Positions 2,997 to 58,593 of a stretch of 64,000 nt of DNA are shown one piece after another. Every line of letters starts with the position of its first letter. Position 1 is the first letter of the stretch. The stretch spans positions 22,546 to 86,545 of the forward strand of contig JBMFOP010000001.1 of NCBI GenBank assembly GCA_049969675.1, written 5' to 3'. The DNA is from Myxococcota bacterium. GTDB taxonomy: Bacteria > Myxococcota > SpSt-1050. Made by a program: the position numbers and the translations under genes. A model generated the notes under the pieces. The model saw nothing but the letters and a program-made list of their open reading frames with translations. It ran no database searches and was not told the origin of the DNA.

Positions 2997-3183
2997 TTGC
3001 TGTCTGGTATTCATCCAGTTAATTAGAATACTGACACCTTCTTCCCCATCTTTTAAAATTGAGGCGTAATATCAATAAATTACAGAATATCTTTCTCAAT
3101 TTTTGAGTGAACGATTTTGGCATATCACCCTATTTGTGGTATCTACTATTCTGGAATGCAAATTGAAAAATCAAAAAGCCACT

Positions 3184-4101: not shown

Positions 4102-4118
4102 AGAATGAGGAGATTTTT

Positions 4119-6710: not shown

Positions 6711-6714
6711 ATAT

Positions 6715-8415: not shown

Positions 8416-8425
8416 GAGGTAGGAT

Positions 8426-9646: not shown

Positions 9647-9657
9647 GAGGATAAAAG

Positions 9658-10101: not shown

Positions 10102-10113
10102 ACGGAATATGTA

Positions 10114-12097: not shown

Positions 12098-12104
12098 GGT
12101 AATT

Positions 12105-13352
12105 ATGCAGAGGCTTATAAAATGCAGAGGTTCAAAAGGAATGGCAATGCTCATGGTTGTAACCATTATTGCCATTCTTGCCACAATGGCTATGGACTTC
12201 TCCTATGAGGCTATGATAAATCTGCAGCTTACCTCTACTTATAGAGACGAGGTGAAGGCGTACTTCCTTGCACACTCGGCGCTGAATATCTCCCGACTGG
12301 TAATATTTTATCAGAAGCAGCTGGATTCTATGTTGAAGAGTAATAACCTTGCACAGGTGTTAGGTGGTAATATCCAGCTCTTCAGGCTTATCCCTATTGA
12401 TAGCGAATTTACAAAGTCCTTTGCCAGTGGTGAACTCTTCTCATCGCTGGGCTTTCAGGAGATTAAGGAGGAGAGACCTACCCCTATGAAGGATGTTGAG
12501 AAAGATGAGGGAGAGGGGCGGGCATTTGCAGGGAAATTTGGGGATTTTGAAGGATATTTCAAAGCCAGTATAGAGGATGAAGAGTCAAAGATATCTGTAA
12601 GAAACTTTGATGCCACCCCGTCTCTTAGAAATTTTGCTATGACACAACTTATGCTTTTAATGCTACCGCAGCAGTACAATCCAATCTTTGAAAATAGGGA
12701 TATGGACAATCAATATACAACCCGTGAGGATATAGTGGTGGCACTCAAGGACTATCAGGACATAGATGATAAACAGTTTGACCTCCTCACACAGCAGGAC
12801 ATCGGCCCACCTGAGGATCTATTCTACTCGGCACTTGAAAGGCCATATCAGACAAAGAATGCGCCATTTGATTCTCTTGAGGAGTTAAGGATGGTAAGAG
12901 GTGTGGGAGAGGTCTTCTTTCATAACTTTGCAGATAGGCTTACCATCTATCCCATAAAGAAATTCAACCTCGCAAGCCTTGACGACAGGATGATTTTGAA
13001 CATAATCTGTATGTTTATTAAGGACAGGAATCACCCCATCTGCACAGACCCAACATATACATCTCAACAGAACCTCCTCAGGCGGTTTCAGGAATATAAG
13101 GAGATGAAGATGAGTCAGAACCCGCTATTTGTGGTATCTGTTCAGGATATAAAGGAATTCTGTAACCTTGAGGGGATTATCCTCCATGATGCAATACTTG
13201 GTGTAGGTAAGATGGAGGAGCTGCTCACAATGGAGAGTTCATATTTCAGGATTGAGACCATAGGAGTTGTAGGTAGTGTAAAGAAACGAATTACCGCAGT
13301 AGTATATGCAGATAAATCCAGATCAGAACTTTTGTATTACAGAGAGGATTGA
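12105..13352 (+). CDS. gspK: minor pseudopilin GspK-like
   Basis: Start MQRLIKCRGSKG then MAMLMVVTIIAILATMAM. The prepilin-like helix lacks E+5, as is typical for GspK. GAGGT RBS at 12097-12101. About 416 aa with a large periplasmic domain. Confidence 0.55.
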   Translation: MQRLIKCRGSKGMAMLMVVTIIAILATMAMDFSYEAMINLQLTSTYRDEVKAYFLAHSALNISRLVIFYQKQLDSMLKSNNLAQVLGGNIQLFRLIPIDSEFTKSFASGELFSSLGFQEIKEERPTPMKDVEKDEGEGRAFAGKFGDFEGYFKASIEDEESKISVRNFDATPSLRNFAMTQLMLLMLPQQYNPIFENRDMDNQYTTREDIVVALKDYQDIDDKQFDLLTQQDIGPPEDLFYSALERPYQTKNAPFDSLEELRMVRGVGEVFFHNFADRLTIYPIKKFNLASLDDRMILNIICMFIKDRNHPICTDPTYTSQQNLLRRFQEYKEMKMSQNPLFVVSVQDIKEFCNLEGIILHDAILGVGKMEELLTMESSYFRIETIGVVGSVKKRITAVVYADKSRSELLYYRED

Positions 13353-13354
13353 TT

Positions 13355-14767
13355 ATGCCAAAGAGATACATTTCGGTGAGATTCGGGAATGAATCTTATT
13401 ACGCCCTGATAGGGGAGGAGGTAAAGGGTGGTATAAGGATTTTAGAGAAGAGGTCTATAAAGGTAAATCAGGAGAATCTCTCTGAGAATGGATTTGATAG
13501 AGATGCCTTAAAGACACTGTTTCTCAATGCAGATATTTCAGAGCACATCATAGTCATCCCTTATTATGATGTATATACAGGGATTGTAGAATTTCCACTT
13601 ACAGACCGCAAGAAGATTGAGAACGCACTCTCTTATGAACTTGAAAATGAGACGATGGAGAGCCCTGAGGATCTTATTTCAGACTACAGAATTATTAACA
13701 ATGCAGATGGGAAGACGCAGGTAGCATATTTTGCATCCAGAAAAGAGAACATAAGGAGATTACTTGCTGAGCTCTCAATGATAGGAGTTGACCCAGCCAA
13801 TCTGGTGGCTTATCAGAATCTCTATTCAGGATTTTACAGATATATATTTGATAAGAATTCAGATAGGGCAGTAAAGTCAATTCTGGACTTTTCGGATAAT
13901 ATATTGAGTCTATCCTTTCTTGATTCAGATGGATTTGTCTTCGGGAGGGCATTAAAAGTTGTAGATATAAATGAAGACCTATCTGTTGTAAAGAACTTCA
14001 TCACCACTACCATTCAATATTACAGGATGCGTGCACATAGAGAAGTTGTAAGTACATATATTGTTGCAAAGGAGGAAGAATTTGAATTCTTCTATAACCT
14101 TTTGAGCTCAGAGATAGGACTCAGCACGGTCTCAAAACTGATTGTCAAAGATTCAGATTCAAACGATATTGAGGCCGAATTTGTGATGCCTTATTCCTCA
14201 GTTGTGGCGAGGTCCGAACTCACCAGGAGACAACTCATCAACTTCAGAAAAGACGAGTTTGTCTATAGAGGAGAGTTTGAGTTCTTAAAGAGACAACTAA
14301 TAAAATATGGTATTGCCGTGGTGATTATCGTCCTGCTTGCAATTTCACTTACAATCTACAAATTAAGGGCGCTCTCAAAGTATGATGAGTTATTAAATAA
14401 CTCACTATCTGAGGTCACCAAACAGATATTGGGGAAGCCTTATGACAACTTTACAACCGCACTCGCCGTCATTAAGAGCAAGACCGAACCGAAGAATCTC
14501 TCAATACCTAAGACATCGGCATTTGACTATTTTATGTATTTCTCAGATGCCTTTCCGACGGAGGTTGATGTAAATATCCGAACACTTGAGATAGGTGATA
14601 AGAAGATTCGTATGGAGGGAGAGACTGATTCATTTGAATCAGTGGATAGGGTAGTAAATGCATTAAAGAAGAATAGTTGCTTTAAGGATATAACAAAAGG
14701 GAAGGTCAAGAAATCACCGGATGGGAAGAGGATTGACTTTGACCTTGCAATAACTCCCTCCTGTTGA
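13355..14767 (+). CDS. gspL: GspL-like inner membrane protein (cytoplasmic domain, single TM, periplasmic domain)
   Basis: Positional call: it follows gspK. Single TM YGIAVVIIVLLAISLTIYKL at about residue 320, matching GspL topology. Sequence-level similarity was not verified. Start ATG 13355 (TTG 13349 also possible). Confidence 0.45.
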   Translation: MPKRYISVRFGNESYYALIGEEVKGGIRILEKRSIKVNQENLSENGFDRDALKTLFLNADISEHIIVIPYYDVYTGIVEFPLTDRKKIENALSYELENETMESPEDLISDYRIINNADGKTQVAYFASRKENIRRLLAELSMIGVDPANLVAYQNLYSGFYRYIFDKNSDRAVKSILDFSDNILSLSFLDSDGFVFGRALKVVDINEDLSVVKNFITTTIQYYRMRAHREVVSTYIVAKEEEFEFFYNLLSSEIGLSTVSKLIVKDSDSNDIEAEFVMPYSSVVARSELTRRQLINFRKDEFVYRGEFEFLKRQLIKYGIAVVIIVLLAISLTIYKLRALSKYDELLNNSLSEVTKQILGKPYDNFTTALAVIKSKTEPKNLSIPKTSAFDYFMYFSDAFPTEVDVNIRTLEIGDKKIRMEGETDSFESVDRVVNALKKNSCFKDITKGKVKKSPDGKRIDFDLAITPSC

Positions 14768-14775
14768 GGTGTAAT

Positions 14776-15348
14776 ATGAATAAGAGAGTGGCACAATTGA
14801 GAGATTCACTCAGCATATGGTATAACTCCCTATCAGGCAAGGAGAAGACATTTGTTGTAATATTCTCATCATCACTCTTTGCTGTGATGGTGGCATTTAT
14901 AATAATTTTCATATCTTCTACAATAAATAGTCGATATACGGAGATAGAGGAGAAGGAGAAGAAGTTGAGGGAGATTATAGAAAATAAAGATAAATACAGA
15001 GAGGCAGAGCAGGCACAGAAGGTATTTGAACAGAGGCTGAAGGGAAATAATGTGAATCTATTCTCTTTTGTTGAGGAGATATCCAGAAGACTTCAGATAG
15101 ATATATCCGATATGAATGAGAGGGAGAGTCCGGTCCAGAAGGGAGATAAGATAAAAGAGCAGACGCTGGAATTGAATATCTCAAAGATCCCGATGGACAG
15201 GCTTGTGGATTTTATGAAGGAGATTGAGAAGGGGCAGTATCTGGTAAAGATAAAGAAGCTCAAGATAAATACGAGATATGAGAAGGAGAATAGGACTCTC
15301 AATGTAAATATGATTGTAGCCACATATAAGTCAGTAACCAGGGAATGA
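14776..15348 (+). CDS. gspM: GspM-like bitopic membrane protein
   Basis: About 190 aa. N-terminal TM FVVIFSSSLFAVMVAFIIIFI plus coiled coil. Positional, after gspL. GAGGTG RBS before ATG 14776. Confidence 0.45.
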   Translation: MNKRVAQLRDSLSIWYNSLSGKEKTFVVIFSSSLFAVMVAFIIIFISSTINSRYTEIEEKEKKLREIIENKDKYREAEQAQKVFEQRLKGNNVNLFSFVEEISRRLQIDISDMNERESPVQKGDKIKEQTLELNISKIPMDRLVDFMKEIEKGQYLVKIKKLKINTRYEKENRTLNVNMIVATYKSVTRE

Positions 15349-15354
15349 TATATT

Positions 15355-16236
15355 ATGAAGATAAAGAATATTCTTATTTATGCAGGTTATGTTCTGGCAT
15401 TCTTTATAAGCCTTTATATTTTTGTCTATCTTACACTTCCAGATGAGAGGATAGCGAAGTTCTTTGTTGATAGATATACTGCCATTTATGGTGTGAATAT
15501 AACCTACAGGAGTGCAGGGATTACTCCTTCTATGAATATCCTCTTAAAGGAGGTAGAACTTATGATAACGGATATCCCGCAGAAGATAAAGCTTGATAGA
15601 GTAGAGGCTGGAATCTCCTTATCTGGTTATCTCTTTGGTACAAAGCCACTTATTTTAAAGGCAGAAATCTCGGGCGGAAGTATCAGGATAAATGCGGGTG
15701 CGAAGAAGGAGAAGATATATTTATCGCTCAATGTCTCAGATTTAGATATTATGAAAGTGGATTTTATAAAAGATAAGACGGGACTTAATATAAAGGGTCA
15801 ACTGAATCTCCAGCTGGATATTAAATATGATCAGAAAGAATCAAAGAATAACAGTGGGAGTATATCAATTGAGATAAAGGGTTCAGAGATAAAAGGTGGA
15901 AAGGTTATGGGTTTTGAGATCCCATCTGTAAATACAGGAGATATTAAAGGAGAGATAGATATAAAAGAGGGGAAATTTAAGGTATCAAACTTTAAATCAA
16001 AGGGGAAAGATGTGGAGTTGAGGCTCTCGGGTGAAGGTGGATTCCTATCGCCGCCATCCAGAGGGAATCTCAATCTCTCACTAAGGGTCAGGCCATCACA
16101 GGGATTTATTGATAGAGAGGAGAAGCTCAAGACGGTCCTCTTCGGGATCGGTAGTTCACTTGATAAGGAAGGCTTTTACAACTTCTCAATTAAAGGTACC
16201 CTCTCAAATCCAGCATTTAATATAGAGAAGAAATGA
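15355..16236 (+). CDS. gspN: GspN-like protein (putative)
   Basis: 293 aa with N-terminal TM YAGYVLAFFISLYIFVYL. Last gene of the block, positional. Lys/Gly-rich low-complexity periplasmic part. Confidence 0.35.
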   Translation: MKIKNILIYAGYVLAFFISLYIFVYLTLPDERIAKFFVDRYTAIYGVNITYRSAGITPSMNILLKEVELMITDIPQKIKLDRVEAGISLSGYLFGTKPLILKAEISGGSIRINAGAKKEKIYLSLNVSDLDIMKVDFIKDKTGLNIKGQLNLQLDIKYDQKESKNNSGSISIEIKGSEIKGGKVMGFEIPSVNTGDIKGEIDIKEGKFKVSNFKSKGKDVELRLSGEGGFLSPPSRGNLNLSLRVRPSQGFIDREEKLKTVLFGIGSSLDKEGFYNFSIKGTLSNPAFNIEKK

Positions 16237-21981: not shown

Positions 21982-24900
21982 ATGAGCAAGAGAACATTTT
22001 TAGCAATTATCATTATGGCACTTTTGCTTTCTTTCTGTGCTACAGAGCCAGAGCCTCTGGATAGGACGCAACCAGAGGCAGTCAACAAAGCCATTTTTAG
22101 TGGTGAATGGATTTATAAAGCAACTGTAACTGATACAGATTGGGATAATAAATTTACATTTATAGGAGAAGAGACGAGCTCTTATATGGGAGATGCCTTC
22201 AAGCTTAGATGGGAAATTACAATGGACTATCTAAATGCATATAAAGTTGCACAGAGGTATATGACCCTTGATGGCAGATTGGTTGAGAATGATGCTGGAG
22301 ATAAGAGTCTGGTGCTATCTTTTAGAATCAAAAAGCATTACGATATAAGATACCGATATAATAGTACGACAAGGGAAGACCTGAATGTTATTGAAGAGAA
22401 TTATGATAGACCCTGGAATGAGAGAGAATATATGGAGGTTGATTGGTCGCAGAATCTGGCTACCAATGTGAGCAATCCGTTGCAGATGGACCTTGCCTCC
22501 GGAGAGCTTGTGAGAGAGCCGGTCTCAGTTTATGAAAATGTAGAATTCTTTGCGAGAGGTGCTACAAAGGATGAAGATTACAAGATTGATACGAGGAAAT
22601 GGAATCCCAAGAAAGACCCTGAAGTCTATTTAATAAATATTGACCTCAAAGAGTCAATCAGGTCTCGTCTTGAGAGCTGGATACAACTTTATTATGGTGA
22701 ATATATGCCTCCGGTGACAGTTAAGACCCGTCACTCACTTATGAAGGCCCTTCCTATAGATCAGCAGACCTATAAACCAATGCAGTATGATGATTATTTC
22801 TTTAGAAGGTTTGGCTTCTTCAGAACCGAGTATGATACCTATGACCCCGAGAGGGGACCAATGGAGAATCAGAAACAATACCTTATTAACAGATGGGATT
22901 TTTCAAATGGTAAGAAGTTGATATGGTATGCCTCCCCAAGTTTTCAGGAGCAGATCAATGAAGGCGATTCAGACCTGAAGGGCTATGCACTCAGGGTTAT
23001 TGAAGAATGGAATAAGGTACTGAAGGAGGCTCTCGGCAGAACAGATGATGTCCTTGAATTTAGAGAAAATGAACCTTTGTGTAACGCTGGTGTTAAGGTG
23101 ATCACAAATTCTGATGGGGTGAAAGTCTGTGAGGATGGGAAACAGGTAACAAATCTGGATGGCAGTAAGAGATGGAAGTATGAAGTGGGTGATCTAAGAT
23201 ATTCATTCTTAAACTTCATTAAAAAACCTCAAAATGCATCTCCGCTTGGCTATGGTCCGTTAACGCCTGATGCAGATACTGGTGAGATAGTAAGTGCCAC
23301 AGTAAATGTATATGGTAATTGGGTGGATTATGTGGTGAGAAGGGCTATGGATCAGTATGATGTTGCAGCAGGTTTATGTACGCTTGACAATGTAAAGGAC
23401 GGCTTCTTTTATAATCCAGAGACAGGGAGGTGTGATAGTCAGGTATTTATAGGCAAGTACAAAGGGGGAGTTGTTCAACCAAAGGCGGCCCCACCATCAG
23501 AAGGTGATAAGAAGAATAAAAACAGGTTGAGAACACTCACACCAGCTCTTAAGACGGCATATTATCCCAAACTTGATATTCACAAACCAGACCCACAAAT
23601 CCCCCAGGAACAGATGAAGAAAGACCTTGAAAATCTCAAAGTGCTTTATAAAGACCAGCTCAAACATCCTGTTGCGCTGGATCTTAACGGATTTAAGAGC
23701 ATTAAAGGTACAAAATTTGAATCAATGCTTGTCCCACATTCTACATTCAATTCATTGCTGCCCTATGCAAAATCAGCAGATGATGCTGAGGTGGTAGCAC
23801 TCCTTTCTCCAGCCAGAAGACTCTCTCCAGAATTTCTATATGCAATGAAGAAGGGTCAGGAGAAGAGGATGCATTATTGTGACGAACCGATTATGTTTGA
23901 ACCAGCGATTAATGCATTTGTAGAGGAGATGAAAGATAAACCCAGAGATGAAGTATATAAAATTTTGAGGAACTGGATATGGTATACAACAGCGCTTCAT
24001 GAGATGGGACATACACTTGGATTAAGACACAATTTTAGAGGGTCTGTAGACCAGAGAAATTTCTCTCAAGAGTATTTTGCAGCCTACGATGAATACTGGA
24101 AACAGATTGATGCAATAAGAGGCAAATACTGGAATAGAATCAAAAATGGAGATGCAGAGGCATACGAGGCATATGTTCAGGAGGTTGATGATATAAAATC
24201 CATACACAATAGATATGCCTCAACATCTATAATGGACTATCTCGGCGATTGGACAAAGTGGCAATATCCTGTTGGGAGCTATGACAGGGCGGCAATTCTA
24301 TTTGGATATGGAAAGAAGGTTGAGGTTTCTGATGGAAAAGGAGGATGGGTACTTGCGGATTATATGGACGGCGATTTCAGACAGAAAGATTTCTATGATG
24401 AAAATGAACTCGCAGAATCTGGAAGGAAGGTTAGATATTATATGTTCTGCTCGGATGAAAAGGTATTTGATGACGCCTTCTGTACCAGATTTGATGTTGG
24501 GACAACTGCTACTGAGATCGTAAGGAACTTTATTAGAGATGCACAGCCTGCATATTTCTTCAAGAACTTCAAGAGACATTCAGCGATGTTTGATGAGAGG
24601 AGAGACAGTTACTATATCAACAAATGGCTCTGGACTTACTATACTTATGGCAAGGCGTTAGGCGAAATGACTCTCGGTTCAATAAGGTATGAAGAGATGT
24701 GGGGCTCCATATTTGATGGAATTGATGCAATTAACAGAGGTCCAGAGACAAGGGATATGGTTCCGGGGTATCATAGAAATGGTGGTGAAGACCTATTAAG
24801 GGCTTCAATGATATTCTATTATTACCTGATTTATGATGTCTTAATGAGGCCTGATTACGGTTATTATCAGTTGAGCTATGATACATCACATCAAAAGTAC

Positions 24901-25968
24901 TGGGAATCCACCGAACCACAATATCTTGATGACTCAAAACCCAGTACTTATGTGCCTGCTGGGATTGGTTGGGGGTGGATGGATAAATACGACCAGCAAA
25001 GAGATATCAATCAGTATTATCCTCATCTTGAGAGGATTGGTGTGGAGCTTGACAAGATAATTGCACTTGAGATACTGTCAATCCCTGCGGCACTAAATGA
25101 ACCGTTATATTTTGAAAAGGCAAATGGTGTCAATTTCTGGAACTCTCTCTGGACAAATAACGGCAGTCAACTCTGGGAGGTAATTAAAGGACTTATCACA
25201 GATAACTTCTCACATTATCAAAATCCATGGTGTATTAAATGTGATGCCGCATGCAGGGCGGACCCGATAAATCATCCTCCAGAGATTAAGACATATCCTG
25301 TTGACCTGCTTGAAGGTATGAGAAAAGGCAGACTGATTGGTGGCTGGGTAGAGCCGACAAGGCCAAATAGATGTGGCTCCGACGACGAGTCTCCGATGCA
25401 GCCCGGAATGGATGCACTCTTTGCAATCTATCCGATTTTCTACGCTATTGCCGGTGCATCACATCCCTGGTATCATAATTCACTATCAGATTATCTTGAT
25501 TCGCAGGTCGTTGGTGGTGCTCATAGGTTTGATCCACCTCCGGGTGCAAAGACGGTTACAATGGTTAATAGCTCCGGGACAAAGACATATCTTGCAGCCC
25601 AGACGGATGACAATCTGAGTATCTCATATCAACTCGTTTCAAATGGGAGATGGATAAATAATCATCTTGCCTATTACACCGCCTGTAATAATGGTGAAGT
25701 ACCATCTCAGGAGTTAAGAACTGAGATGAATAAAAATTGCAATGATTGGGAGAGCTGTTGTTCTGATGTCCTTGATTGTTATAATCCTTGGTTAAATCCA
25801 AAACCAGAATATTGTGATGCAGAAGGATGGGACATTTTATTTATGTATGATGGATTTAAGTATAGAAATCTGGATAGAATTGAGGCAATGCTTATAATGA
25901 TGCAGGATATGATTGATATCGCCGGGCATTACCAATGGAGGGTCCCTGGGTACCTTGAAGAACCCTGA
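21982..25968 (+). CDS. large secreted/lipoprotein zinc metalloprotease of the metzincin type (HEXXHXXGXXH)
   Basis: 1328 aa. N-terminal signal peptide with Cys (MSKRTFLAIIIMALLLSFC). ALHEMGHTLGLRHNF carries three His ligands in metzincin spacing. Resembles Bacteroidota-type DUF4953/DUF5117 zinc metalloproteases; this is from memory, not searched. Confidence 0.65.
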   Translation: MSKRTFLAIIIMALLLSFCATEPEPLDRTQPEAVNKAIFSGEWIYKATVTDTDWDNKFTFIGEETSSYMGDAFKLRWEITMDYLNAYKVAQRYMTLDGRLVENDAGDKSLVLSFRIKKHYDIRYRYNSTTREDLNVIEENYDRPWNEREYMEVDWSQNLATNVSNPLQMDLASGELVREPVSVYENVEFFARGATKDEDYKIDTRKWNPKKDPEVYLINIDLKESIRSRLESWIQLYYGEYMPPVTVKTRHSLMKALPIDQQTYKPMQYDDYFFRRFGFFRTEYDTYDPERGPMENQKQYLINRWDFSNGKKLIWYASPSFQEQINEGDSDLKGYALRVIEEWNKVLKEALGRTDDVLEFRENEPLCNAGVKVITNSDGVKVCEDGKQVTNLDGSKRWKYEVGDLRYSFLNFIKKPQNASPLGYGPLTPDADTGEIVSATVNVYGNWVDYVVRRAMDQYDVAAGLCTLDNVKDGFFYNPETGRCDSQVFIGKYKGGVVQPKAAPPSEGDKKNKNRLRTLTPALKTAYYPKLDIHKPDPQIPQEQMKKDLENLKVLYKDQLKHPVALDLNGFKSIKGTKFESMLVPHSTFNSLLPYAKSADDAEVVALLSPARRLSPEFLYAMKKGQEKRMHYCDEPIMFEPAINAFVEEMKDKPRDEVYKILRNWIWYTTALHEMGHTLGLRHNFRGSVDQRNFSQEYFAAYDEYWKQIDAIRGKYWNRIKNGDAEAYEAYVQEVDDIKSIHNRYASTSIMDYLGDWTKWQYPVGSYDRAAILFGYGKKVEVSDGKGGWVLADYMDGDFRQKDFYDENELAESGRKVRYYMFCSDEKVFDDAFCTRFDVGTTATEIVRNFIRDAQPAYFFKNFKRHSAMFDERRDSYYINKWLWTYYTYGKALGEMTLGSIRYEEMWGSIFDGIDAINRGPETRDMVPGYHRNGGEDLLRASMIFYYYLIYDVLMRPDYGYYQLSYDTSHQKYWESTEPQYLDDSKPSTYVPAGIGWGWMDKYDQQRDINQYYPHLERIGVELDKIIALEILSIPAALNEPLYFEKANGVNFWNSLWTNNGSQLWEVIKGLITDNFSHYQNPWCIKCDAACRADPINHPPEIKTYPVDLLEGMRKGRLIGGWVEPTRPNRCGSDDESPMQPGMDALFAIYPIFYAIAGASHPWYHNSLSDYLDSQVVGGAHRFDPPPGAKTVTMVNSSGTKTYLAAQTDDNLSISYQLVSNGRWINNHLAYYTACNNGEVPSQELRTEMNKNCNDWESCCSDVLDCYNPWLNPKPEYCDAEGWDILFMYDGFKYRNLDRIEAMLIMMQDMIDIAGHYQWRVPGYLEEP

Positions 25969-39681: not shown

Positions 39682-40500
39682 ATGATAGTAAGAGAGCCTA
39701 AATATAGTGGTAAATTTTATCCAGAAAAGCCCAGAGTCCTCATCTCTATGTTGCAGGATCTGTACAATAGGGTTGAATTTTCCCGGAAGAAGATAAGGTC
39801 TAATGGAATCCTGTTGCCACACGCCGCATATCACTACTCCGGGCATGTGGCTATGTCTGTCTTGAAGTGCATAGAAATTCCAGAGAATATAATAATCTTT
39901 TGTCCAAATCACAATGGACTCGGGGAGGATGTAAATATTGTCTCTGAGGGACGCTTTATAACACCTATTGGAGATGTTGCTATAAATTCGGATATTGCAA
40001 GGGGTATTATGAAAGATATCCCCGAAGTAAAGGAAGATATAAAGTCTCATCTGATAGAACATTCAATTGAGGTGCAACTCCCGTTATTAAAATACCTTAG
40101 AAACGATGTAAGAATTGTTCCCATACTTATTAAGAAACTTAAAGCAAATATTCTTACAAAATTGATATCTGATTTTGCAAATTTCTTTAAGGGTTCTGGT
40201 GCTTCTGACATTCTATTTCTCTCAAGCAGTGACCTCTCTCATTATGAGAGATATGATGAGGCAATAAGGAAGGATAAGCTGCTCTTAAAATATGTTGAGA
40301 AGATGGATATCTATGGGCTCAAAAAGGTAATTGAAGAAGAACATATCTCTATGTGTGGATATGAGGGCACAGCAATCAATATGGAGTTGTGTCGTCAGTC
40401 TGGTGCTACTCAGGGGATAATTAAGAGGTATGATACAAGTAGTTCAAGCGATGGGAATTATGAGAGTGTTGTGGGGTATGCAGGGGCCTGTTTTGTATAG
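39682..40500 (+). CDS. MEMO1-family protein (AmmeMemoRadiSam system protein B-like)
   Basis: MIVREPKYSGKFYPEKP, PHAAYHYSGHVA, HSIEVQLPLL: MEMO-like catalytic His cluster. The AMMECR1 and radical-SAM partners are not adjacent. Confidence 0.7.
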   Translation: MIVREPKYSGKFYPEKPRVLISMLQDLYNRVEFSRKKIRSNGILLPHAAYHYSGHVAMSVLKCIEIPENIIIFCPNHNGLGEDVNIVSEGRFITPIGDVAINSDIARGIMKDIPEVKEDIKSHLIEHSIEVQLPLLKYLRNDVRIVPILIKKLKANILTKLISDFANFFKGSGASDILFLSSSDLSHYERYDEAIRKDKLLLKYVEKMDIYGLKKVIEEEHISMCGYEGTAINMELCRQSGATQGIIKRYDTSSSSDGNYESVVGYAGACFV

Positions 40501-40502
40501 TT

Positions 40503-42056
40503 ATGGATAATGCAAAAGTAAAGGCTTTATATAAAGGTGATATATCCAGAATTAATATCTGTGAGCTTTTGATAAGGCTTGGGGTCTTAAAAGAGAATGG
40601 ATATGTGGAGATAATTATTGAAGAGTTGAGGATAAAAATTTATCTATATATGGGGGATATTGTTAATATTGAATCTGATGATATCAATTTCTCACTTGCG
40701 GGATTCTTAAGGAAGAGGAATAGAATCAGTGAAGAGCAGTATGCAGATGTAAAGAAGATGGTGCAGGCTGGAGATAATAGTACTGCAGAGGTACTCCTGA
40801 CCCTCGGGTTAATCAAACCATTTGAGGTTATTCAGTTCATAAACGAATTTCTTATATGTGCTCTCGGCAGGATAGCGACTTTTTCAAAGGGGATTTATGT
40901 TTATTACAGGATTGAACAGGATGTCTATCCTTTCCCGGTAAATCTGAGATTCAACACAGTAGATGCTGTAAAGAATGTGATATTTAATCATCTCCCCGAT
41001 GAATATTTTATAAGGCTCTTTGCAAGACATAATGAGATTGATGTCATATTGCGAAGTTCAGGGCTGACCATTGAGAATGCAAGGCTTGGTCCAAAGGAGT
41101 TGCGATATCTTAAAGCCATCTGTTCTTCAGGGAAATTTGTAGATTATCTCCCTGAAATTAATCCCACTAACTCAGAACATATCTATAAACTCAGGGCTGC
41201 ATATTATTTTAAGTTGTGTGCATTTATTGAGATGAGGAGAGGGAAAGAGAGTTTTGAATCAGTATTCCATATTGAGAACCTGAAAGATAATCATTTTGGG
41301 GAATGTGGAGTGGTTCCCCCGTCAGAAAAGGCTTTAGAAAAAGAGGGATGTAAGATTGATGATGAGGAGGAGAAGAAGATATCAGAGCTGACAGCCCTCT
41401 TTGAGGAGATGAAGAAGAAGAATTTCTTTGAAAGATTGAATGTCAGCGAAGATGCACAGGATGCCCAGATAAAGAAGGCGTATCTCCTGCTTGCAAAGAA
41501 GTATCACCCTGATATTGTCACTGTTAATGCTTCAAAGAGGATAAAGAAGTGTTATGAGGATATATTTGCACTTATCAACGAGGCGTATCAGAGGCTTGAG
41601 AAGGCAGATTCAAGGAGAGATTATCTGGAATCAATAAAACAGAGTGAGGATGGAAAGTCTGATGTGGATATAGCGAGTATTCTGGAAGATGAGGCAAAAT
41701 TTATAAGGGCTAAGGCACTTATCAAGAACAACAGAAATATAGAATCTGGACTTCAGATACTTGAAGATATAATGACGAGAAATCAGGATGATGAGTACAG
41801 GATTTATTATCTCTGGGGGAAATTCCTTAAAGAGAAGCCTACAGACCCAGCCGTAATAGGGAAGATAATAACATCTCTTGAAATGATTGCAAAGAAGAAG
41901 GAGCTTCCGGACCTCTTCCTGTTCCTCGGTTACCTATATAAAGCAGTCAGGAATGAGGAGAAGATGATAGAGGCATTCAAAAGACTTCTAAAGCTCGAGC
42001 CGAATAATACAATTGCCTCTATTGAGATTAAACTATATGAGAAGAAGAAGAGATGA
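40503..42056 (+). CDS. J-domain (DnaJ-like) protein with uncharacterized N-terminal domain and TPR-like C-terminus
   Basis: J-domain NFFERLNVSEDAQDAQIKKAYLLLAKKYHPD at about residues 305-370. The N-terminal 300 aa resemble a DUF4388-like module (uncertain). Start is 2 nt after the MEMO-like stop. Confidence 0.65.
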   Translation: MDNAKVKALYKGDISRINICELLIRLGVLKENGYVEIIIEELRIKIYLYMGDIVNIESDDINFSLAGFLRKRNRISEEQYADVKKMVQAGDNSTAEVLLTLGLIKPFEVIQFINEFLICALGRIATFSKGIYVYYRIEQDVYPFPVNLRFNTVDAVKNVIFNHLPDEYFIRLFARHNEIDVILRSSGLTIENARLGPKELRYLKAICSSGKFVDYLPEINPTNSEHIYKLRAAYYFKLCAFIEMRRGKESFESVFHIENLKDNHFGECGVVPPSEKALEKEGCKIDDEEEKKISELTALFEEMKKKNFFERLNVSEDAQDAQIKKAYLLLAKKYHPDIVTVNASKRIKKCYEDIFALINEAYQRLEKADSRRDYLESIKQSEDGKSDVDIASILEDEAKFIRAKALIKNNRNIESGLQILEDIMTRNQDDEYRIYYLWGKFLKEKPTDPAVIGKIITSLEMIAKKKELPDLFLFLGYLYKAVRNEEKMIEAFKRLLKLEPNNTIASIEIKLYEKKKR

Positions 42057-43354
42057 GACTATCGTGTAAGATCGCATATGCTGTATTGGTTGCATCATTT
42101 GTCCTCTCTGCCTGTCAGACAGCCACTCATCTTAAGCCAGAGGGCTGCCAGCAGCAGATAATATTTGAGATACAGGGTATATCACATCCTGTAAAAGATA
42201 TTTCAGAAAACAGGGCTCTATTAAGGCTTGAGGGAGAGATATCTGTGGCATCGGTGGGGGATATCATTCCTCATAACAATGTAAAGAAGGCGGCGTCACA
42301 GGGGAATATAGTTCAGGGTGGAAGGAGTATAAATAATGAAGGTTTTGATACCCTTTTTGAGAATGTAAAGGAGTATCTTAAAGCCGATGTCACTATTGCA
42401 AATTACGAATCACCAATTGCCCCCATAAATGGTTCATCAGGGCAACCTTTTGTATTTAATTCTGATACATCCCTTCTTAGAGCCGCAAGAGATGCAAATA
42501 TCAATCTGTTTAATATAGCAAATAACCACATCTATGATCAGGATATAAAAGGGTTTTTAGAGACGATAGAGAATTTTGAATCGGAGAAGATAAGATATAT
42601 AGGCACATATACCGATGATAAGCCACGCCCTCTATTCCTGGAAAGGAATGGGATCAGGGTGGCATTCTTTGGATTTACCACGCTCTTAAATAATCAACCC
42701 GATTACGGCCGGCTCAGGGAGTATGTTAGAAAGTATATAGGAGAGAAGGATACAGAAGAGATCAGAAAGGCTAAAGAGAAGGCAGATATTGTGATTGTTT
42801 ATATACACTGGGGAGAGGAATATAAGAAGGAGCCAGACGAATCACAGATCAGTCTCGCAGATGAATTGATTGAGGCTGGCGCAGATATTATAATTGGTGG
42901 ACATCCACATATACTCCAGCCATTGAGTCTTATAGCCTCAAATGATATGCGGATTGTCCCTGTGGCATTTTCAATGGGAAATTTTATCTCAAATCAGAGC
43001 CGAAATTATGCATTTCCTATATCCGGTGAAGATGAGGGGAGGACAAGGGACTCCGCAATATTGAGATTTAAGCTAAAAAAATATTCTTACAACGACTTTT
43101 CCTTTACTGTGGTCTCGGAACTCTATTTTGTGCCTCTCTGGACATACAACAATGATATCCAGTTTTCAAAGGGGGTTGAAAAGAGACTTAAGATATATCC
43201 ATTCCCTATCACGGAAAGGATAGAACAATTGAATAAGGCAATTGTGGTAGAGAAGGATGAAAATAGGAAGAAGGAACTCCTTCTGGAACTTGAAAATCTG
43301 TTGTTGAGGCTCAAATTGATAAAGGGTACACTCGGAGAAGATTATGTAAGATAG
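42053..43354 (+). CDS. CapA/PGA_cap family metallophosphatase-like lipoprotein
   Basis: Lipoprotein signal MRLSCKIAYAVLVASFVLSAC. CapA motifs IANYESP, IANNHIYDQ, HWGEEY, GGHPHILQP. ATGA overlap with the upstream gene. Confidence 0.6.
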   Translation: MRLSCKIAYAVLVASFVLSACQTATHLKPEGCQQQIIFEIQGISHPVKDISENRALLRLEGEISVASVGDIIPHNNVKKAASQGNIVQGGRSINNEGFDTLFENVKEYLKADVTIANYESPIAPINGSSGQPFVFNSDTSLLRAARDANINLFNIANNHIYDQDIKGFLETIENFESEKIRYIGTYTDDKPRPLFLERNGIRVAFFGFTTLLNNQPDYGRLREYVRKYIGEKDTEEIRKAKEKADIVIVYIHWGEEYKKEPDESQISLADELIEAGADIIIGGHPHILQPLSLIASNDMRIVPVAFSMGNFISNQSRNYAFPISGEDEGRTRDSAILRFKLKKYSYNDFSFTVVSELYFVPLWTYNNDIQFSKGVEKRLKIYPFPITERIEQLNKAIVVEKDENRKKELLLELENLLLRLKLIKGTLGEDYVR

Positions 43355-43355
43355 T

Positions 43356-43991
43356 ATGAAATACTCTCCAATTATATGGGCATCAGCATATCTGATAAGC
43401 AGGTTAATCAGGAGTTACAGATATGTAGTCAGTAATGATGCTATTGTACAGAATTGCAAAAGACCTCCGGTCTTTGCTCTATTCCATTCTACTCAGATGT
43501 TGGTTGCAAGTTATAGAACCAATTTTAAGACCAATATATTGGTAAGTCTTTCAAAGGATGGGGAGATAGCAGCACAGGCATTACAGATGCTCGGCTTTGG
43601 AGTGGTAAGGGGTTCTTCTTCAAAAAGGGGTAGAGAGGCACTTGATGAATTGATATTAAAGGTCAGATCCGGAGAATCAGCCGCTATTACAGTTGATGGT
43701 CCACGGGGTCCCTGTGAAGAGGTAAAGAGTGGAATAATAAGACTTGCGTCAGAGTCAAATGCGCCAATAGTTTGTGTATCAGCTGCTGCAAAGGTTATGT
43801 ATAGATTAAAGAATTCCTGGGACCGTTTTATAGTTGCACCCCCTCTTTCAAAGGTCTTTATCTCTTTTTCGGACCCCATCACTGTCGATAGAATAGTGGA
43901 TGCTGAAGAGATAAAATTTTTTAAGAGTCTAATAAAAACAAAATTGCGCTCCCTGTTTGAGGATTCTCTCAAAATGGTTCAAAAAATTTAA
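43356..43991 (+). CDS. DUF374-like lysophospholipid acyltransferase family protein (putative)
   Basis: 211 aa. FHSTQML / GEIAAQALQMLGFGVVRGSSSKRG / ITVDGPRGP are reminiscent of the DUF374 family. Memory-based call. Confidence 0.4.
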   Translation: MKYSPIIWASAYLISRLIRSYRYVVSNDAIVQNCKRPPVFALFHSTQMLVASYRTNFKTNILVSLSKDGEIAAQALQMLGFGVVRGSSSKRGREALDELILKVRSGESAAITVDGPRGPCEEVKSGIIRLASESNAPIVCVSAAAKVMYRLKNSWDRFIVAPPLSKVFISFSDPITVDRIVDAEEIKFFKSLIKTKLRSLFEDSLKMVQKI

Positions 43992-44024: not shown

Positions 44025-45833
44025 TTGCATAGGTATTATAAAGAGAATCAGGATATTGAAGGACAAAGGCTTGCCTGTGGTAAATATAGTCGCAGGGTTC
44101 TACAGGATCTGCTTAAACTATCAGATATTCATTGTAATATAATTGCAATGGGTTGGGTTGGAAATCGTATAGTGATTGATATTCTCCCACAGGGTAAAAA
44201 AGAGGACTCACTAATCACGCTTTATATTGCAAAGAGGGTAGATACTCAACCATCCCTTTTAAAGACCGACTTTCTGGATATATACTACAGTAGTAATAAG
44301 AATAACGAGGACTTTGCAAGACATATCCTATCTCTTAAGATTAATGATATCACTTTCGCTCAGCTAACGAAGATCTTAAAAGATGACCCTGAACTTGGAG
44401 ACCCATCTCTCTCTATGCCCACATCAGAGGCGGCGGATAGGCCAGAGAATCATCTGGACAGCTGGGGTGGAAGGGATTTATACGCCAATTTCTTCGCCGA
44501 GGGAGAATTTGCCAGAGGACAGTTAGATTCGGTTAATATCTATGAGAATTGTGTCTTTATTCAACATTCTGATATAGAATGCGTCTCGTTAAGGCCAAAT
44601 CTGGATTTGAGACTCATTAAGTTTCTGGTAAGATATCCATGGCTCTCCCCAAATCCAGAGAAATATAGTGGTATCAGACGTGATGAACTCCCGGATGTTA
44701 ATAAATTCTTCTCTACTGACCTCAGGGAGAAAGATATTATAATGGGGCATAATAAGGTTAGAGATGCACTTGAATATGTCCTTAATAATGTTAAGAAGAA
44801 GAATATCTTCCTCTCCAATACCTGCACCCCTGTTGTGATAGGGGAAGATGTAGAATCTTTAGTAAAAAAGGCTAAACAGAGGAGAAAGGACCTCTTATAT
44901 CTTACAGTCACTCCTCAATCAATGGAGGTAGTATTAAAGGACTTATTTAAAATTCCATCTAAAAGAATGAAGAGAAAGGCTCATAATCTGATTAATCTTA
45001 TGGGTTATGAAGATGATAATTACATAAGACAGTTAATAAAGTTTCTAAAAGATTTAGGAATTGAAGTAAATTCTACTGTTATACCTGATGTCTCAGTAAA
45101 GACCCTTAATAAATATTTTAAAGGCGGTGTTGATATACTAAAACCAAATTCTCTCTGGAGCCATCTCTATATGCAACTTAACTCTATGTCTGGACATAAA
45201 TATATTTCAATTGACTCACCATATGGCTTTTTCGGGACAATCAGATGGATAATTGAACTCTTAAGAATCCCTGGAAGAAAGATATCTGAGGATGAGATAA
45301 TGAAGAGAATAAAGCCCGAGATCATTGATAGATATTTGAGATTGAGAGAAGCAATGAAATCTATAGGTGTTATCTTCATTGTGAGAAAGGATGAAGTTGG
45401 ATATCTCACCGATTCTGCTAAGTCGTGGGGTGTACCTTTGATAAAGTTCTTCAGAGAGATGGGAAGTAAGATAGAGGTATTCATAAAGGCTCAAAGCCTT
45501 GAAGAGGCAAAGTCTGCATCAACTCAACTATTAGGTTTTATTTCGGATTATCATAATTTTGAGATAAGATATTTTGATTCTTTTGAGAATATGATGAGAC
45601 TGATAAAGAGTAGTATGGCTCAATTGGTTTTTACAAATCATTCAAATGATTGGAGGATAACATCGGGGGGAAAGCATTCTCTCTCACTTACGGATTTTGA
45701 AGTCGGTTTTGAAGGTGCAATATATACAATGGAAAATATTTTGAACCTCGCAAATAATCAATTTTTCAAGAGGTATGCAAGGTATTTACAGAGGGATTTT
45801 AAGGGAAGCTATGAAGAGAGAGAACAAAGGTAG
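44025..45833 (+). CDS. nitrogenase component 1-like (NifD/NifE-fold) oxidoreductase subunit, divergent, with N-terminal extension of about 150 aa
   Basis: IMGHNKVRDALEYVLNNVKKKNIFLSNTCTPVVIGEDVESLVKKA matches the NifD/NifE GGDKKL...STCPxGLIGDDIxAV region, including the P-cluster Cys154 equivalent. FIQHSDIECV is a possible HGPVGC equivalent. No obvious Fe-protein gene nearby. Confidence 0.5.
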   Translation: MHRYYKENQDIEGQRLACGKYSRRVLQDLLKLSDIHCNIIAMGWVGNRIVIDILPQGKKEDSLITLYIAKRVDTQPSLLKTDFLDIYYSSNKNNEDFARHILSLKINDITFAQLTKILKDDPELGDPSLSMPTSEAADRPENHLDSWGGRDLYANFFAEGEFARGQLDSVNIYENCVFIQHSDIECVSLRPNLDLRLIKFLVRYPWLSPNPEKYSGIRRDELPDVNKFFSTDLREKDIIMGHNKVRDALEYVLNNVKKKNIFLSNTCTPVVIGEDVESLVKKAKQRRKDLLYLTVTPQSMEVVLKDLFKIPSKRMKRKAHNLINLMGYEDDNYIRQLIKFLKDLGIEVNSTVIPDVSVKTLNKYFKGGVDILKPNSLWSHLYMQLNSMSGHKYISIDSPYGFFGTIRWIIELLRIPGRKISEDEIMKRIKPEIIDRYLRLREAMKSIGVIFIVRKDEVGYLTDSAKSWGVPLIKFFREMGSKIEVFIKAQSLEEAKSASTQLLGFISDYHNFEIRYFDSFENMMRLIKSSMAQLVFTNHSNDWRITSGGKHSLSLTDFEVGFEGAIYTMENILNLANNQFFKRYARYLQRDFKGSYEEREQR

Positions 45834-47154
45834 AAAATTCTCTCAGAGGTTACTGAGCCCATATATGGTGGGAGTCTATCTCGGTGTTAATGCTGTGAAG
45901 GATTTTTATCTGCTTGTAGATGGGCCGGATTGCTCATATATGAAGACCCAATATATAGGAATGAATCAGGACTTCTATGCCAATCTTACAAATCTATCTG
46001 GTTTTCACAGAATAGGAAATACTGCATTACATCCAATTATGATGGCATCTTCAAGAGAGGAGAAGATTCTCTCTGCTTTATTAAAGATTGCAAAAGGAGA
46101 ATTTGTCTCTGCGGTTGGTATCACTCCGATGCCAATGGCAGCGGTTACCGCGGTAGATTATAGTCGGTTATTAAGGGAGGTGAGCAGGAGATATAAAAAA
46201 CCAACATTTGAGTTCAAGAATAAATCACTCTCGGGGGATTGGATGGATGGTTACATGGAATTCGGGAAGGTGCTTGCATCCAGTATGGAGATTGGGAAGG
46301 TCAGGAAGAGACGAAGGTCTGTGGCTATAATCGGTTATTTATATGATAGAAACGAATATGATAATATTGCAAATATCGCTGAGCTCAAAAGAGTCTTTCA
46401 GGGGATTGGTGTAAATGTCGCGGGTATATGGTTTGATGGCGGCGGTTTTATGGATCTAAAATCAGTATCTGAGGCTGACCTGATTATTTCGTTTGGATAT
46501 CTCAGAGATGCTGCGAGAATCTTATCAGAGCGGCTAAAGACTCCGGTGATGGAATTTGATTATCCAGTGGGGTTTGAGCAGACGGGTGATATATTAAAGA
46601 GGGTATCTGAATACTTTGAAATCAGAGACGCATCCACCTTCATTGAGAGAGAGACAGAGGCAATTGTGAGGAGAGTAGAGTCACTTATAGAACAATACTT
46701 AATACGACTCAGGGTGTTTTATTGTGGGGACCCGATTCTATTTAATTCAATTAAATCAATGCTTGAACTTGTTGGAATGAAGATTGAATATGCCATTATT
46801 TCCAATACATCTGAGAAGTCATCTTATGTAAAGGAGCCAATTAAGAATATTATTTTTGAACCGTCTATCAACGATGTCTTTGAGGTTGGTCTAAAGATGG
46901 CAAGAGAGGATAAGATAGACCTATATGTCGGCAATAGTGATATGAGTTCATACTTTATCGGGAGTGGGAAGGCGGCGGTTGAGATTGGATTCCCTTCTTA
47001 TTTCTCGCATTGTATCGCAGAAATCCCTTATGTGGGTTATAGAGGGTATATGCATCTTCTGAACAGGATTATAAAAGAGCTCAGATTTGCTGAGGTCAGA
47101 AAGGTCTTTAGAGAGCAAGGGATAGAGTCATTCATAAAAAATAAAATTTTATAA
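45775..47154 (+). CDS. nitrogenase component 1-like (NifK/NifN/BchB-fold) subunit, divergent
   Basis: YLLVDGPDCSY resembles HGPxGC. The central region IIGYLYDRNEYDNIANIAELKRVFQGIGVNV...PVGFEQTGDILKRVSEYF matches the beta-subunit type. The C-terminus IDLYVGNSDMSSYF...EIGFPSYFSHCIAEIPYVGYRGYMHLLNRIIKEL matches the NifK-type (L)IGNS...GFP..DR...GY.G motif. The start may be the internal M at 45811 or 45862, since the track ORF overlaps the upstream gene by 59 nt. Confidence 0.55.
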   Translation: MQGIYRGILREAMKRENKGRKFSQRLLSPYMVGVYLGVNAVKDFYLLVDGPDCSYMKTQYIGMNQDFYANLTNLSGFHRIGNTALHPIMMASSREEKILSALLKIAKGEFVSAVGITPMPMAAVTAVDYSRLLREVSRRYKKPTFEFKNKSLSGDWMDGYMEFGKVLASSMEIGKVRKRRRSVAIIGYLYDRNEYDNIANIAELKRVFQGIGVNVAGIWFDGGGFMDLKSVSEADLIISFGYLRDAARILSERLKTPVMEFDYPVGFEQTGDILKRVSEYFEIRDASTFIERETEAIVRRVESLIEQYLIRLRVFYCGDPILFNSIKSMLELVGMKIEYAIISNTSEKSSYVKEPIKNIIFEPSINDVFEVGLKMAREDKIDLYVGNSDMSSYFIGSGKAAVEIGFPSYFSHCIAEIPYVGYRGYMHLLNRIIKELRFAEVRKVFREQGIESFIKNKIL

Positions 47155-47223
47155 CTTCTGGATATTGCTAACTGTAGATTTTTCTTGAAATCTTTTTCAG
47201 ATTGTGTTAGGGTTTCTGCCGCT

Positions 47224-47304
47224 GCCGAAGTGGTGGAATTGGTAGACACGTACGTTTGAGGGGCGTATGCCAGCGGCGTGTGGGTTCGAGTCCCACCTTC
47301 GGCA
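47224..47304 (+). tRNA. tRNA-Leu(GAG)
   Basis: GCCGAAG acceptor pairs with CTTCGGC. 3-bp D-stem with long D-loop GAATTGGTAGA. Anticodon loop TTGAGGG. 12-nt variable arm. T-arm GTGGG/TTCGAGT/CCCAC. Followed by a T9 run. Confidence 0.85.
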
Positions 47305-47438
47305 TTTTTTTTTGCCTTTACTTGCTTTTTGAAATTATAATTTTACATTATTAATATTTACAATGGATTGAGTAAAGGTTATTATTTATCTGTTTTGAGG
47401 GTTAGCTCTGGTCTGTCTTTTGAGGCAGGTAAGAAGTC

Positions 47439-57737: not shown

Positions 57738-58593
57738 AGAAGAGATTTCCTCTCCATTTAATTTCTCATATCCCATATCTCTTCCATCTCTAAAAATCTC
57801 TCTATCAGATTTAGGTCAGATAAACCCAATATTGATAGCAGATACAGAGAGTGAAGTCTTCATTATTGATGGTTTTAGAAGGTATAATATATTAAAACAG
57901 CTCGGGGCAGATCCCATATTTTTCAAAGTAAGACCCTTACATATAGAGAATGCCCTTAATGTATATTTAGCAATCAATCTCGAATCCCGTCGTTTTAATA
58001 TTATTGAAAAGATTAGAATATGTAGATTTGTCATTTCAAATAAGATTAATATATCTGAACAGACTCTTCAAAAGGCTGGACTTGGAGATATTTATAAGAA
58101 TAGTGGTCTTTATGAATTTATTGAGAATCTCAATGACAATCTAAAAGATATCATTGTGGAGAAGCGGCTTACAACCTCATTGATAGAAAGGCTTTTAAAA
58201 ATTGGCTATACAAATTCAGAGAAGATACTCCTTTATGCAAGAGATAAATCTCTAACTCATCAACAGACAAGGGAGGTTATAACTGATTTATATCTACTTA
58301 CAATGAAAGGTGTAGATATTGGTCAAATTATTAACGCACTCACAGAAATTTCATTTGAAGAACTAAAAAGGAAAATAAGGGGAATCAAAAATCCATTGCT
58401 TCAAAAAATGGAAGATGAATTTAAGGATTTTATAAAAGACATTAAGAATCTGTCAATTCATCCACCAGAAAATTTTGAAGGGAATAATTACATATTGGAG
58501 GGTAGATTCAGAGATGAGAATGACCTTGAACAGATCTTAAAGGAGATATCAGAGATTAAAGAGAGATGGAAGAGGAATCCAATATTAAAATAG
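57706..58593 (+). CDS. ParB/Srx-like nuclease domain protein
   Basis: The N-terminus ...ILIADTESEVFIIDGFRRYNILKQLGADPI matches the ParB N-terminal (ParBc) DGxxR motif region. No obvious HTH. The start overlaps the end of the Cys-rich extension. The 3' end overlaps the radical SAM gene by 28 nt. Confidence 0.5.
   Translation: MKSAKMANVTEEEISSPFNFSYPISLPSLKISLSDLGQINPILIADTESEVFIIDGFRRYNILKQLGADPIFFKVRPLHIENALNVYLAINLESRRFNIIEKIRICRFVISNKINISEQTLQKAGLGDIYKNSGLYEFIENLNDNLKDIIVEKRLTTSLIERLLKIGYTNSEKILLYARDKSLTHQQTREVITDLYLLTMKGVDIGQIINALTEISFEELKRKIRGIKNPLLQKMEDEFKDFIKDIKNLSIHPPENFEGNNYILEGRFRDENDLEQILKEISEIKERWKRNPILK

Follow-up and report, generated by a model that had tools for sequence, protein, structure and literature searches.

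In a 64,000-nucleotide stretch of a Myxococcota bacterium genome (assembly GCA_049969675.1, contig JBMFOP010000001.1, forward-strand positions 22,546 to 86,545; hereafter the window), two adjacent open reading frames (ORFs), ORF A and ORF B, encode by sequence comparison a Group VI-type NflD/NflK pair, the alpha-like and beta-like component-1 subunits of a nitrogenase paralog. The pair is a member of an already described, uncharacterised family and occupies a distinct sub-clade within it; the family itself is not new. With moderate confidence, we read the pair as a Group VI component-1 that carries one [4Fe-4S]-type site and is served by a reductase supplied in trans. Taken separately, the supply in trans is an evenly balanced proposition.

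ORF A (44025..45833, + strand) encodes a 602-amino acid (aa) NflD-like (alpha-type) subunit and begins at a TTG that sits 5 bases 3′ of the Shine-Dalgarno sequence AGAGGTG. NCBI holds an identical 602-aa protein under the name 'nitrogenase component 1 [Myxococcota bacterium]'. The mechanical ORF for the NflK-like (beta-type) subunit, ORF B, runs from 45775 and gives a 459-aa reading. Its true start is most likely the ATG at 45811, since this is where the database entry and the homologues begin, and the Shine-Dalgarno-like AAGGGAAG lies ahead of it; ORF B then spans 45811..47154 (+ strand) and encodes 447 aa. The two genes are co-directional, and the start of B overlaps the end of A by 23 nucleotides (nt). 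The alpha-type assignment of A draws on its PF00148 (Oxidored_nitro) match, its predicted fold and the NCBI entry, and the beta-type assignment of B on its PF00148 match, the family profile and phmmer scores.

PF00148 matched aa 225-575 of A (E=6.7e-29) and aa 32-436 of B in the 459-aa reading (E=2.2e-43). An AlphaFold2 model of A reached a mean predicted local distance difference test score (pLDDT) of 82, and Foldseek aligned it with NifE, NifN, MarD, NifD and ChlN over ~440-500 columns (E ~1e-15 to 1e-11), with NifE, NifN, MarD and NifD as top matches (E ~1e-15). The model places the Nif-like core of A at about aa 145-602. Searched against the PDB, the family profile of ORF B matched NifK and VnfK with E-values down to 8e-22, and the C-terminal GFPS...GYRGY block of B aligns with the same proteins. 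An earlier note on this DNA had described a very divergent pair of NifD/NifK fold and proposed a check against PF00148; that check was significant for both proteins, so the outcome of no match did not occur, and Foldseek recovered the Nif fold for A. The motifs that the note singled out also hold up: SNTCTPVVIGEDVES of A aligns with the Cys154 segment of NifE and NifD, the beta-subunit hallmark DGPDC of B aligns with NifK Cys95/BchB Asp36 and is joined by the C-terminal block, and TPMPM stands at the place of NifK TTC153MAEV and BchB Cys95.

The pair scored far below the thresholds of the established subfamilies. NCBIfam models for nifD, nifK, nifE, nifN, vnf/anf, BchN, BchB, BchZ and CfbD gave 12-57 bits against cut-offs of 268-1229. 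The nifD model TIGR01282 scored 22.7 (cut-off 653.6), TIGR01286, as a further test for the NifDK type, 30.8 (427.3), and the nifE model TIGR01283 56.8 (505). The models that test for dark-operative protochlorophyllide oxidoreductase (DPOR) and chlorophyllide oxidoreductase (COR) scored 24.8 (TIGR01279; cut-off 420), 42.7 (TIGR01278; 490) and 47.4 (TIGR02014; 529), with COR covered by the BchZ model, and the CfbD model TIGR03282 scored 28.1 (268.4).

Relatives of the pair lead to Group VI. A collection of 5.8 billion proteins contained 79 proteins related to B and 27 related to A, which have PF00148 as their sole domain and come mostly from metagenome-assembled genomes (MAGs) of Myxococcota ("Deltaproteobacteria") and Elusimicrobia. 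We also used the B alignment to scan a set with a single genome for each GTDB species. The best 80 loci returned include the Elusimicrobia GWF2_62_30 (L070), GWA2_69_24 (L086) and GWA2_66_18 (L077), and the first two of these are named in the preprint section on Group VI paralogs (Meheust et al., bioRxiv 10.1101/765248). Bit scores of A and B against Group VI and reference proteins were computed with phmmer at a fixed database size. B scored 212-229 bits against D/K of GWA2_66_18 and GWA2_69_24 and 207-224 bits against those of GWF2_62_30, compared with 27 bits against NifK. A scored 120-149 bits against D/K of GWA2_66_18 and GWA2_69_24 and 21 bits against NifE, and only 34-44 bits against GWF2_62_30.

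Group VI was introduced as a "novel nitrogenase paralog" in Elusimicrobia, with further occurrences in 2 Gracilibacteria and 14 Myxococcales genomes (Meheust et al. 2020, ISME J / bioRxiv 10.1101/765248). It was originally defined by NifH phylogeny, and its co-occurrence with radical S-adenosylmethionine (radical-SAM) genes is frequent, not universal (Meheust et al.). According to a 2026 review, the group is without any characterised member (PMC13474568, section 7). Its NifH-like protein, NflH, has FDVLGDVVCGGFAAP and a C-terminal PTPM as hallmarks, and the same review quotes ~40% identity for it; the NflH adjoining one relative of our pair (L003) has ~41-42% identity to rhizobial NifH. We filed A and B under Group VI because of this agreement and of the phmmer scores against the published loci. 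Like the Group VI proteins, to whose D/K they are homologous over their full length, A and B lack FeMo cofactor (FeMo-co) ligands and part of the P-cluster cysteines (at most four of six in the group, three in A/B), and the family is found in Myxococcales/Myxococcota as well as in Elusimicrobia. The window pair differs in having no adjacent NflH and no radical-SAM neighbours, in belonging to a seven-gene operon (PilZ-Memo-DnaJ/TPR-PGA_cap-DUF374-A-B), and in forming with its sub-clade a deep separate branch with only 30-39% identity to other members. The earlier note was right to place the pair outside NifDK, NifEN, BchNB, BchYZ and CfbD (12-57 bits against 268-1229) and outside MarDK (17-19% identity), but it overlooked Group VI.

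We mapped cluster ligands on an L-INS-i alignment of the family with references from annotated plasmids, namely NifD/K/E/N of Rhizobium johnstonii pRL10 and BchN/B of Sulfitobacter guttiformis pSD118, and counted conservation over 92 A-like and 108 B-like sequences. A-Cys186 (codon 44580..44582, + strand; motif QHSDIEC) corresponds to NifD Cys88 and BchN Cys51, and A-Cys267 (codon 44823..44825, + strand; motif SNTCTPVVIGEDVES) to NifD Cys154, BchN Cys112 and NifE Cys124; each is present in 100% of the 92 A-like sequences. B-Cys41 (codon 45931..45933, + strand; Cys53 in the 459-aa reading; motif VDGPDC) corresponds to NifK Cys95, NifN Cys44 and BchB Asp36 and is present in 92% of the 108 B-like sequences. 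The position of NifK Cys153 and BchB Cys95 is taken by B-Pro108 (codon 46132..46134, + strand; motif TPMPM), a proline in 24 of 26 family members, and the alignment indicates that this ligand is lost across the whole family. The NifD Cys62 position is A-N155, in a variable column, and the NifK Cys70 position falls in a gap in B. Of the two FeMo-co ligands, NifD Cys275 is replaced by Pro374 in A and NifD His442 by Thr556 (Thr or Gln in the family), and A has no cysteine after residue 267. Alignment on the ligand positions thus agrees with the claim in the earlier note that canonical cluster cysteines are replaced: three of the six P-cluster positions are occupied and the FeMo-co ligands are absent.

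The three cysteines are invariant within the sub-clade, and the same three-cysteine pattern is common to the whole family, including members linked to NflH; the pattern is therefore the normal state of the family and not decay. The sub-clade also keeps 65 of the 79 columns that are at least 90% conserved elsewhere in the family (27 of 34 in A, 38 of 45 in B), among them the B motifs SGDWxDGY and DRNExDxxxN. From the conserved triad and these retained columns we infer that A and B form a functional Fe-S reductase core rather than a pseudo-enzyme. The ligand pattern, which agrees with the upper limit of four P-cluster cysteines of six given for Group VI (PMC13474568), likely represents a single inter-subunit site of [4Fe-4S] type, similar to that of NifEN or DPOR with one cysteine ligand replaced, and A and B are predicted to have neither an M-cluster nor an L-cluster site. 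We considered an Asp or Asn at the NifD Cys62 position (A-N155) as a fourth ligand that the sub-clade had lost and rejected it; the column is variable (D/N/Q/R/E), also in NflH-linked members.

The ligand map separates A and B from the better known complexes. Unlike NifDK, VnfDK and AnfDK, they lack the full set of six P-cluster cysteines and the FeMo-co ligands, and they fall below the corresponding hidden Markov model cut-offs. They share with NifEN three of four [4Fe-4S] cysteine equivalents (NifE Cys37/62/124 and NifN Cys44), but the position of the L-cluster ligand of NifE Cys250 type is a proline in A, and the score is again below cut-off. As in DPOR BchNB and NifEN, equivalents of alpha-C88 and alpha-C154 are present in A and a ligand set for an 8Fe P-cluster is missing; two of the three BchN cysteines (26/51/112) are matched in A, and B has a cysteine at BchB Asp36. 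In contrast to both complexes, the third alpha ligand (BchN Cys26/NifE Cys37/NifD Cys62) is a non-cysteine, unconserved residue in A, and A has an extra N-terminal domain. CfbD is a single D-type subunit forming homomers, whereas A and B are two distinct subunits. MarDK (PDB 9d9u/9fmg) provides the best single PDB sequence match of A (E=8.6e-9; 1.7e-19 with the family profile) and is among its best fold matches. However, identity to A in the structural alignment is 17-19%, and the 9d9u chains match A and B at only E=8.6e-9 and 7.4e-6. Mar uses nitrogenase-type metalloclusters (PMC12552129), and 9d9u is described as carrying a P-cluster, for which A and B have no such ligand set. By these comparisons, A and B are not close to MarDK.

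Ahead of its Nif-like core, A carries a family-specific alpha+beta module (aa 1-135; 44025..44429, + strand) that ends in a conserved DPELG motif. The N-terminal extension pointed out in the earlier note is real, and aa 10-130 form a separate, confidently predicted alpha+beta domain (pLDDT 87.6 when modelled alone), but it is not peculiar to A and recurs across the family. In a set of 1.84 billion proteins, a profile of the domain matched only 74 representatives. Proteins of ~600 aa with an N-terminal copy make up most of these, the others being short fragments or longer proteins. Of the 99 A-like ORFs of the fetched loci, 54 contain the domain. Its distribution marks this domain of ~130 aa as an optional family-specific module. 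A possible origin as a NifH remnant was rejected, the domain being such a recurring module. In five relatives of A (P0093, P0096, P0100, P0101 and P0104; 734-785 aa) the domain is tandemly duplicated, and each copy closes with a DDPE[LF]G-type motif.

Five genes lie tightly packed or overlapping upstream of the pair, all on the + strand, and A and B then follow. They encode a PilZ protein of the TIGR02266 family (39114-39659), a Memo protein matching AmmeMemoRadiSam system protein B (39682-40500; TIGR04336, 245 bits), a J-domain/TPR protein with a weak DUF4388 match (40503-42056), a PGA_cap/CapA-like protein (42053-43354) and a DUF374 protein (43356-43991). We found the same order, PilZ-Memo-DnaJ/TPR-PGA_cap-DUF374-A-B, at 10 loci wherever the contig reaches (block carriers are L010-L015, L095-L097, L101 and L102), among close relatives with 59-74% identity in A. 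The flanks vary. Depending on the genome, B is followed by a GGDEF gene, by a helix-turn-helix gene and then PilMNOPQ, by a deoxyhypusine-synthase-like gene, by ribosomal protein S20 or by ZapA, and the genes before PilZ also differ between genomes. These variable flanks on both sides define the conserved unit as the seven-gene block from PilZ to B. Its 3′ boundary in the window is occupied by a tRNA-Leu(GAG) gene (47223..47305, + strand) in a 285-nt gap directly after B; the site after B looks like a rearrangement boundary, because each related genome has a different gene there. Scanning metagenomes with PGA_cap for the five-gene block without A and B yielded only two further complete blocks, the other matches being unrelated CapA homologues. 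All PGA_cap relatives with at least 56% identity have DUF374 and A downstream, and also B if the contig extends that far. For Memo, no partner radical-SAM gene was found in the scanned parts of the window, and AMMECR1 had no match among the scanned ORFs.

A neighbour-joining (NJ) tree built from 111 B-like sequences recovers the sub-clade as a monophyletic group on a long stem, nested among NflH-linked Myxococcota-type members. This nesting indicates that the sub-clade came to lack linked NflH and radical-SAM genes secondarily. The sister position to the window sub-clade in this tree, among the nearest outgroups, is held by L050 together with L053 (JBMCSP010000010.1), which comes from a MAG labelled Nanoarchaeota archaeon; that label is probably a binning or labelling error.

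The absence of a NifH-type partner from the window, stated in the earlier note, was reproduced by motif and profile searches. The motifs GKGG.GKS and KGG.GK[ST] occur in none of the six frames of the 64-kb window, and phmmer with two NflH queries (E<=1e-5) gave no match among the window ORFs. No radical-SAM genes were found in the available flanks (up to 10 kb) at 10 sub-clade loci. Elsewhere in the family, NflH lies within 5 kb of 73 of 103 other B-like genes, many of which have radical-SAM neighbours. Three arrangements occur among the more distant relatives (27-39% identity). In L003-L006 the A homologue is immediately preceded by a NifH-like gene, with radical-SAM genes alongside; in two Elusimicrobia loci (L007, L008) NflH is fused to the A homologue; and L001 has several B12-binding radical-SAM genes and no NflH. 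L001 belongs to a second monophyletic Myxococcota group (L001, L016, L018, L019, L020 and L039) with no NflH within 10 kb and with B12-binding radical-SAM genes kept. The genomic context that the earlier note called unusual is thus real and consistent across the 10 loci of the sub-clade; most family members do have an adjacent NflH.

The Elusimicrobia fusion places NflH in-frame at the N-terminus of an NflD-like protein of 827-874 aa (L007, 1481-3964 and 7897-10521; L008), and the L007 contig carries two NflHD-NflK sets with radical-SAM genes between them. In the window, a radical-SAM ORF with a CxxxCxxC motif lies ~11 kb downstream of the pair (58566-59621, + strand) and matches spore photoproduct lyases (PF20903, E=9e-21). 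We dismissed its motif at 58809 as a sign of a family-type partner, the ORF being spore-photoproduct-lyase-like and unrelated to the pair.

By homology, A and B would assemble like NifEN or the NB-protein of DPOR into an alpha-beta, probably alpha2-beta2, complex. One [4Fe-4S]-type cluster would sit at each alpha-beta interface, held by A-Cys186, A-Cys267, B-Cys41 and a fourth, non-cysteine or other ligand, for which A-E185, A-D183, A-H181 and B-S139 are candidates. With no FeMo-co or L-cluster site, the complex would not fix N2 and would most likely reduce an organic substrate at low potential, in a pocket that may be lined by the family-conserved motifs SGDWxDGY and DRNExDxxxN of B and by D542, R544, K550 and E559 of A. 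In most relatives, the electron donor would be the ATP-dependent, NifH-like NflH, whose gene lies immediately upstream, and the neighbouring radical-SAM enzymes presumably make or modify the substrate. In the Myxococcota sub-clade, both NflH and the radical-SAM genes appear to be gone from the locus. We prefer the reading that the chemistry is kept and that a reductase encoded at another place in the genome acts in trans. We favour it because other genomes in the family combine an NflH-less locus with one that has NflH; three do so (CAYMUE01, DUVQ01 and PWKZ01), which makes NflH in trans plausible in the family.

Several observations weigh against this preference. At the nine other sub-clade loci, no NflH was found within the flanking sequence available (up to 10 kb), and the three species-representative genomes of the sub-clade showed no second NflDK locus among the 80 best matches. 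We searched for an orphan NflH with a profile of 12 Group VI NflH proteins, filtering the best 120 of ~8000 matches for AT-rich amino-acid composition; three of the AT-rich candidates among these 120 were placed in their gene context, and all three lie in ordinary NflH-D-K loci of other organisms. Only three of the four ligands expected for a [4Fe-4S] cluster were identified. The long stem branch of the sub-clade in the NJ tree and its non-conservative changes (B H53Q, P229G, L251Y; A F481S) may signal a functional shift, and the chemistry of Group VI is argued by analogy, the group being without a characterised member (PMC13474568, section 7). Part of this evidence suits another explanation, which we regard as possible and put forward tentatively: the enzyme would work independently of NflH, with a generic donor (ferredoxin or flavodoxin) or non-reductive chemistry, in a new pathway with Memo, the PGA_cap/CapA-like protein and DUF374. 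The joint absence of NflH and radical-SAM genes at all 10 loci with strict conservation of the five partner genes, the lack of any such block without A/B among PGA_cap relatives of at least 56% identity, the long stem with sub-clade-specific substitutions, and the missing second NflDK locus among the 80 best matches all point this way. However, no component-1 homologue is known to act without an Fe protein, be it nitrogenase, DPOR, COR, CfbCD or Mar (PMC13474568), and the retained cysteine triad with most family-conserved residues suggests an unchanged cluster chemistry, which in all studied homologues requires ATP-driven electron injection. Moreover, the operon proteins include no obvious redox carrier, and the sub-clade genomes are incomplete MAGs. 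We consider it doubtful, and somewhat more so, that the sub-clade represents the first component-1 in the nitrogenase superfamily to dispense with an ATP-dependent Fe protein altogether, recruited with its inter-subunit Fe-S cluster intact into a new seven-gene pathway with Memo, CapA-like and DUF374 proteins in AT-rich Myxococcota.

Complete loss of the cluster, leaving a structural derivative or pseudo-enzyme that acts as a scaffold or regulator, appears improbable to us. The occupation of only three of six P-cluster cysteine positions, TPMPM in place of the NifK Cys153 segment and the absence of a reductase gene nearby would fit such a derivative, but the same three-cysteine pattern occurs family-wide, including members next to NflH, the three cysteines are invariant in the sub-clade with 65 of 79 family-conserved columns kept, and 59-74% identity across genomes with reshuffled flanks points to purifying selection. 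Of the choice that the earlier note offered between a new catalytic variant and a cluster-less derivative, the second is disfavoured by the 92-100% conservation of the three cysteines in 92 A-like and 108 B-like sequences and by the retained columns. What the enzyme acts on is a separate matter that cuts across supply in trans, independence from NflH and loss of the cluster. A tetrapyrrole reductase like DPOR, COR or CfbCD, making or modifying a novel cofactor, is unlikely in our estimate: this function was proposed for Group VI by Meheust et al. (PMC13474568, section 7), and a single [4Fe-4S]-type site without an M-cluster resembles DPOR and CfbD, but genes for tetrapyrrole biosynthesis and for B12-binding or HemN-like proteins are absent from the scanned window ORFs and from the conserved operon, the BchN, BchB, BchZ and CfbD models score far below their cut-offs, and the proposal for Group VI rests on an Elusimicrobia gene context that is missing here. 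Hardly any weight goes to a true nitrogenase or a NifEN-like cofactor scaffold. NifE, NifN and NifD are indeed among the best PDB matches in sequence and fold, but the FeMo-co/L-cluster ligand positions are Pro and Thr, half of the P-cluster cysteines are missing, the nifE and nifD models reach 57 of 505 and 23 of 654 bits, and the window has no nifH, its sole radical-SAM gene being spore-photoproduct-lyase-like, with nothing nifB-like seen. The ligand map, as a sequence comparison, effectively refutes this last possibility. Beside supply in trans, which takes about half of our expectation, independence from NflH, which takes a clearly smaller part, and loss of the cluster, which takes little, the remainder goes to readings not listed here.

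Of the major branches of the nitrogenase superfamily, only Group VI has no characterised member (PMC13474568, section 10), and its role in cofactor synthesis has so far been proposed from gene context alone. The sub-clade described here has kept the core and the cysteine triad, shed its NflH and radical-SAM neighbours and gained five fixed partner genes. The pair thereby offers a natural minimal two-gene system for heterologous expression and cluster characterisation, and a test case for whether a component-1 homologue can work without a dedicated Fe protein. Independence from an Fe protein, if true, would change the view of how ATP hydrolysis and electron transfer are coupled in the superfamily; if another part of the genome does encode NflH, the pair amounts to a new sub-family within a known, enigmatic group.

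We scanned most of the larger ORFs of the window. Besides the seven-gene block, they include a type II secretion cluster, housekeeping genes and the genes for LptFG and GlnA. The secretion cluster (3103-16236, + strand) comprises a GspC-like/PDZ protein, a secretin, the T2SSE ATPase, T2SSF, a major pseudopilin, minor pseudopilins and T2SSK. A 1328-aa ORF (21982-25968, + strand) has a short Met-zincin motif (PF16313) as its sole match.

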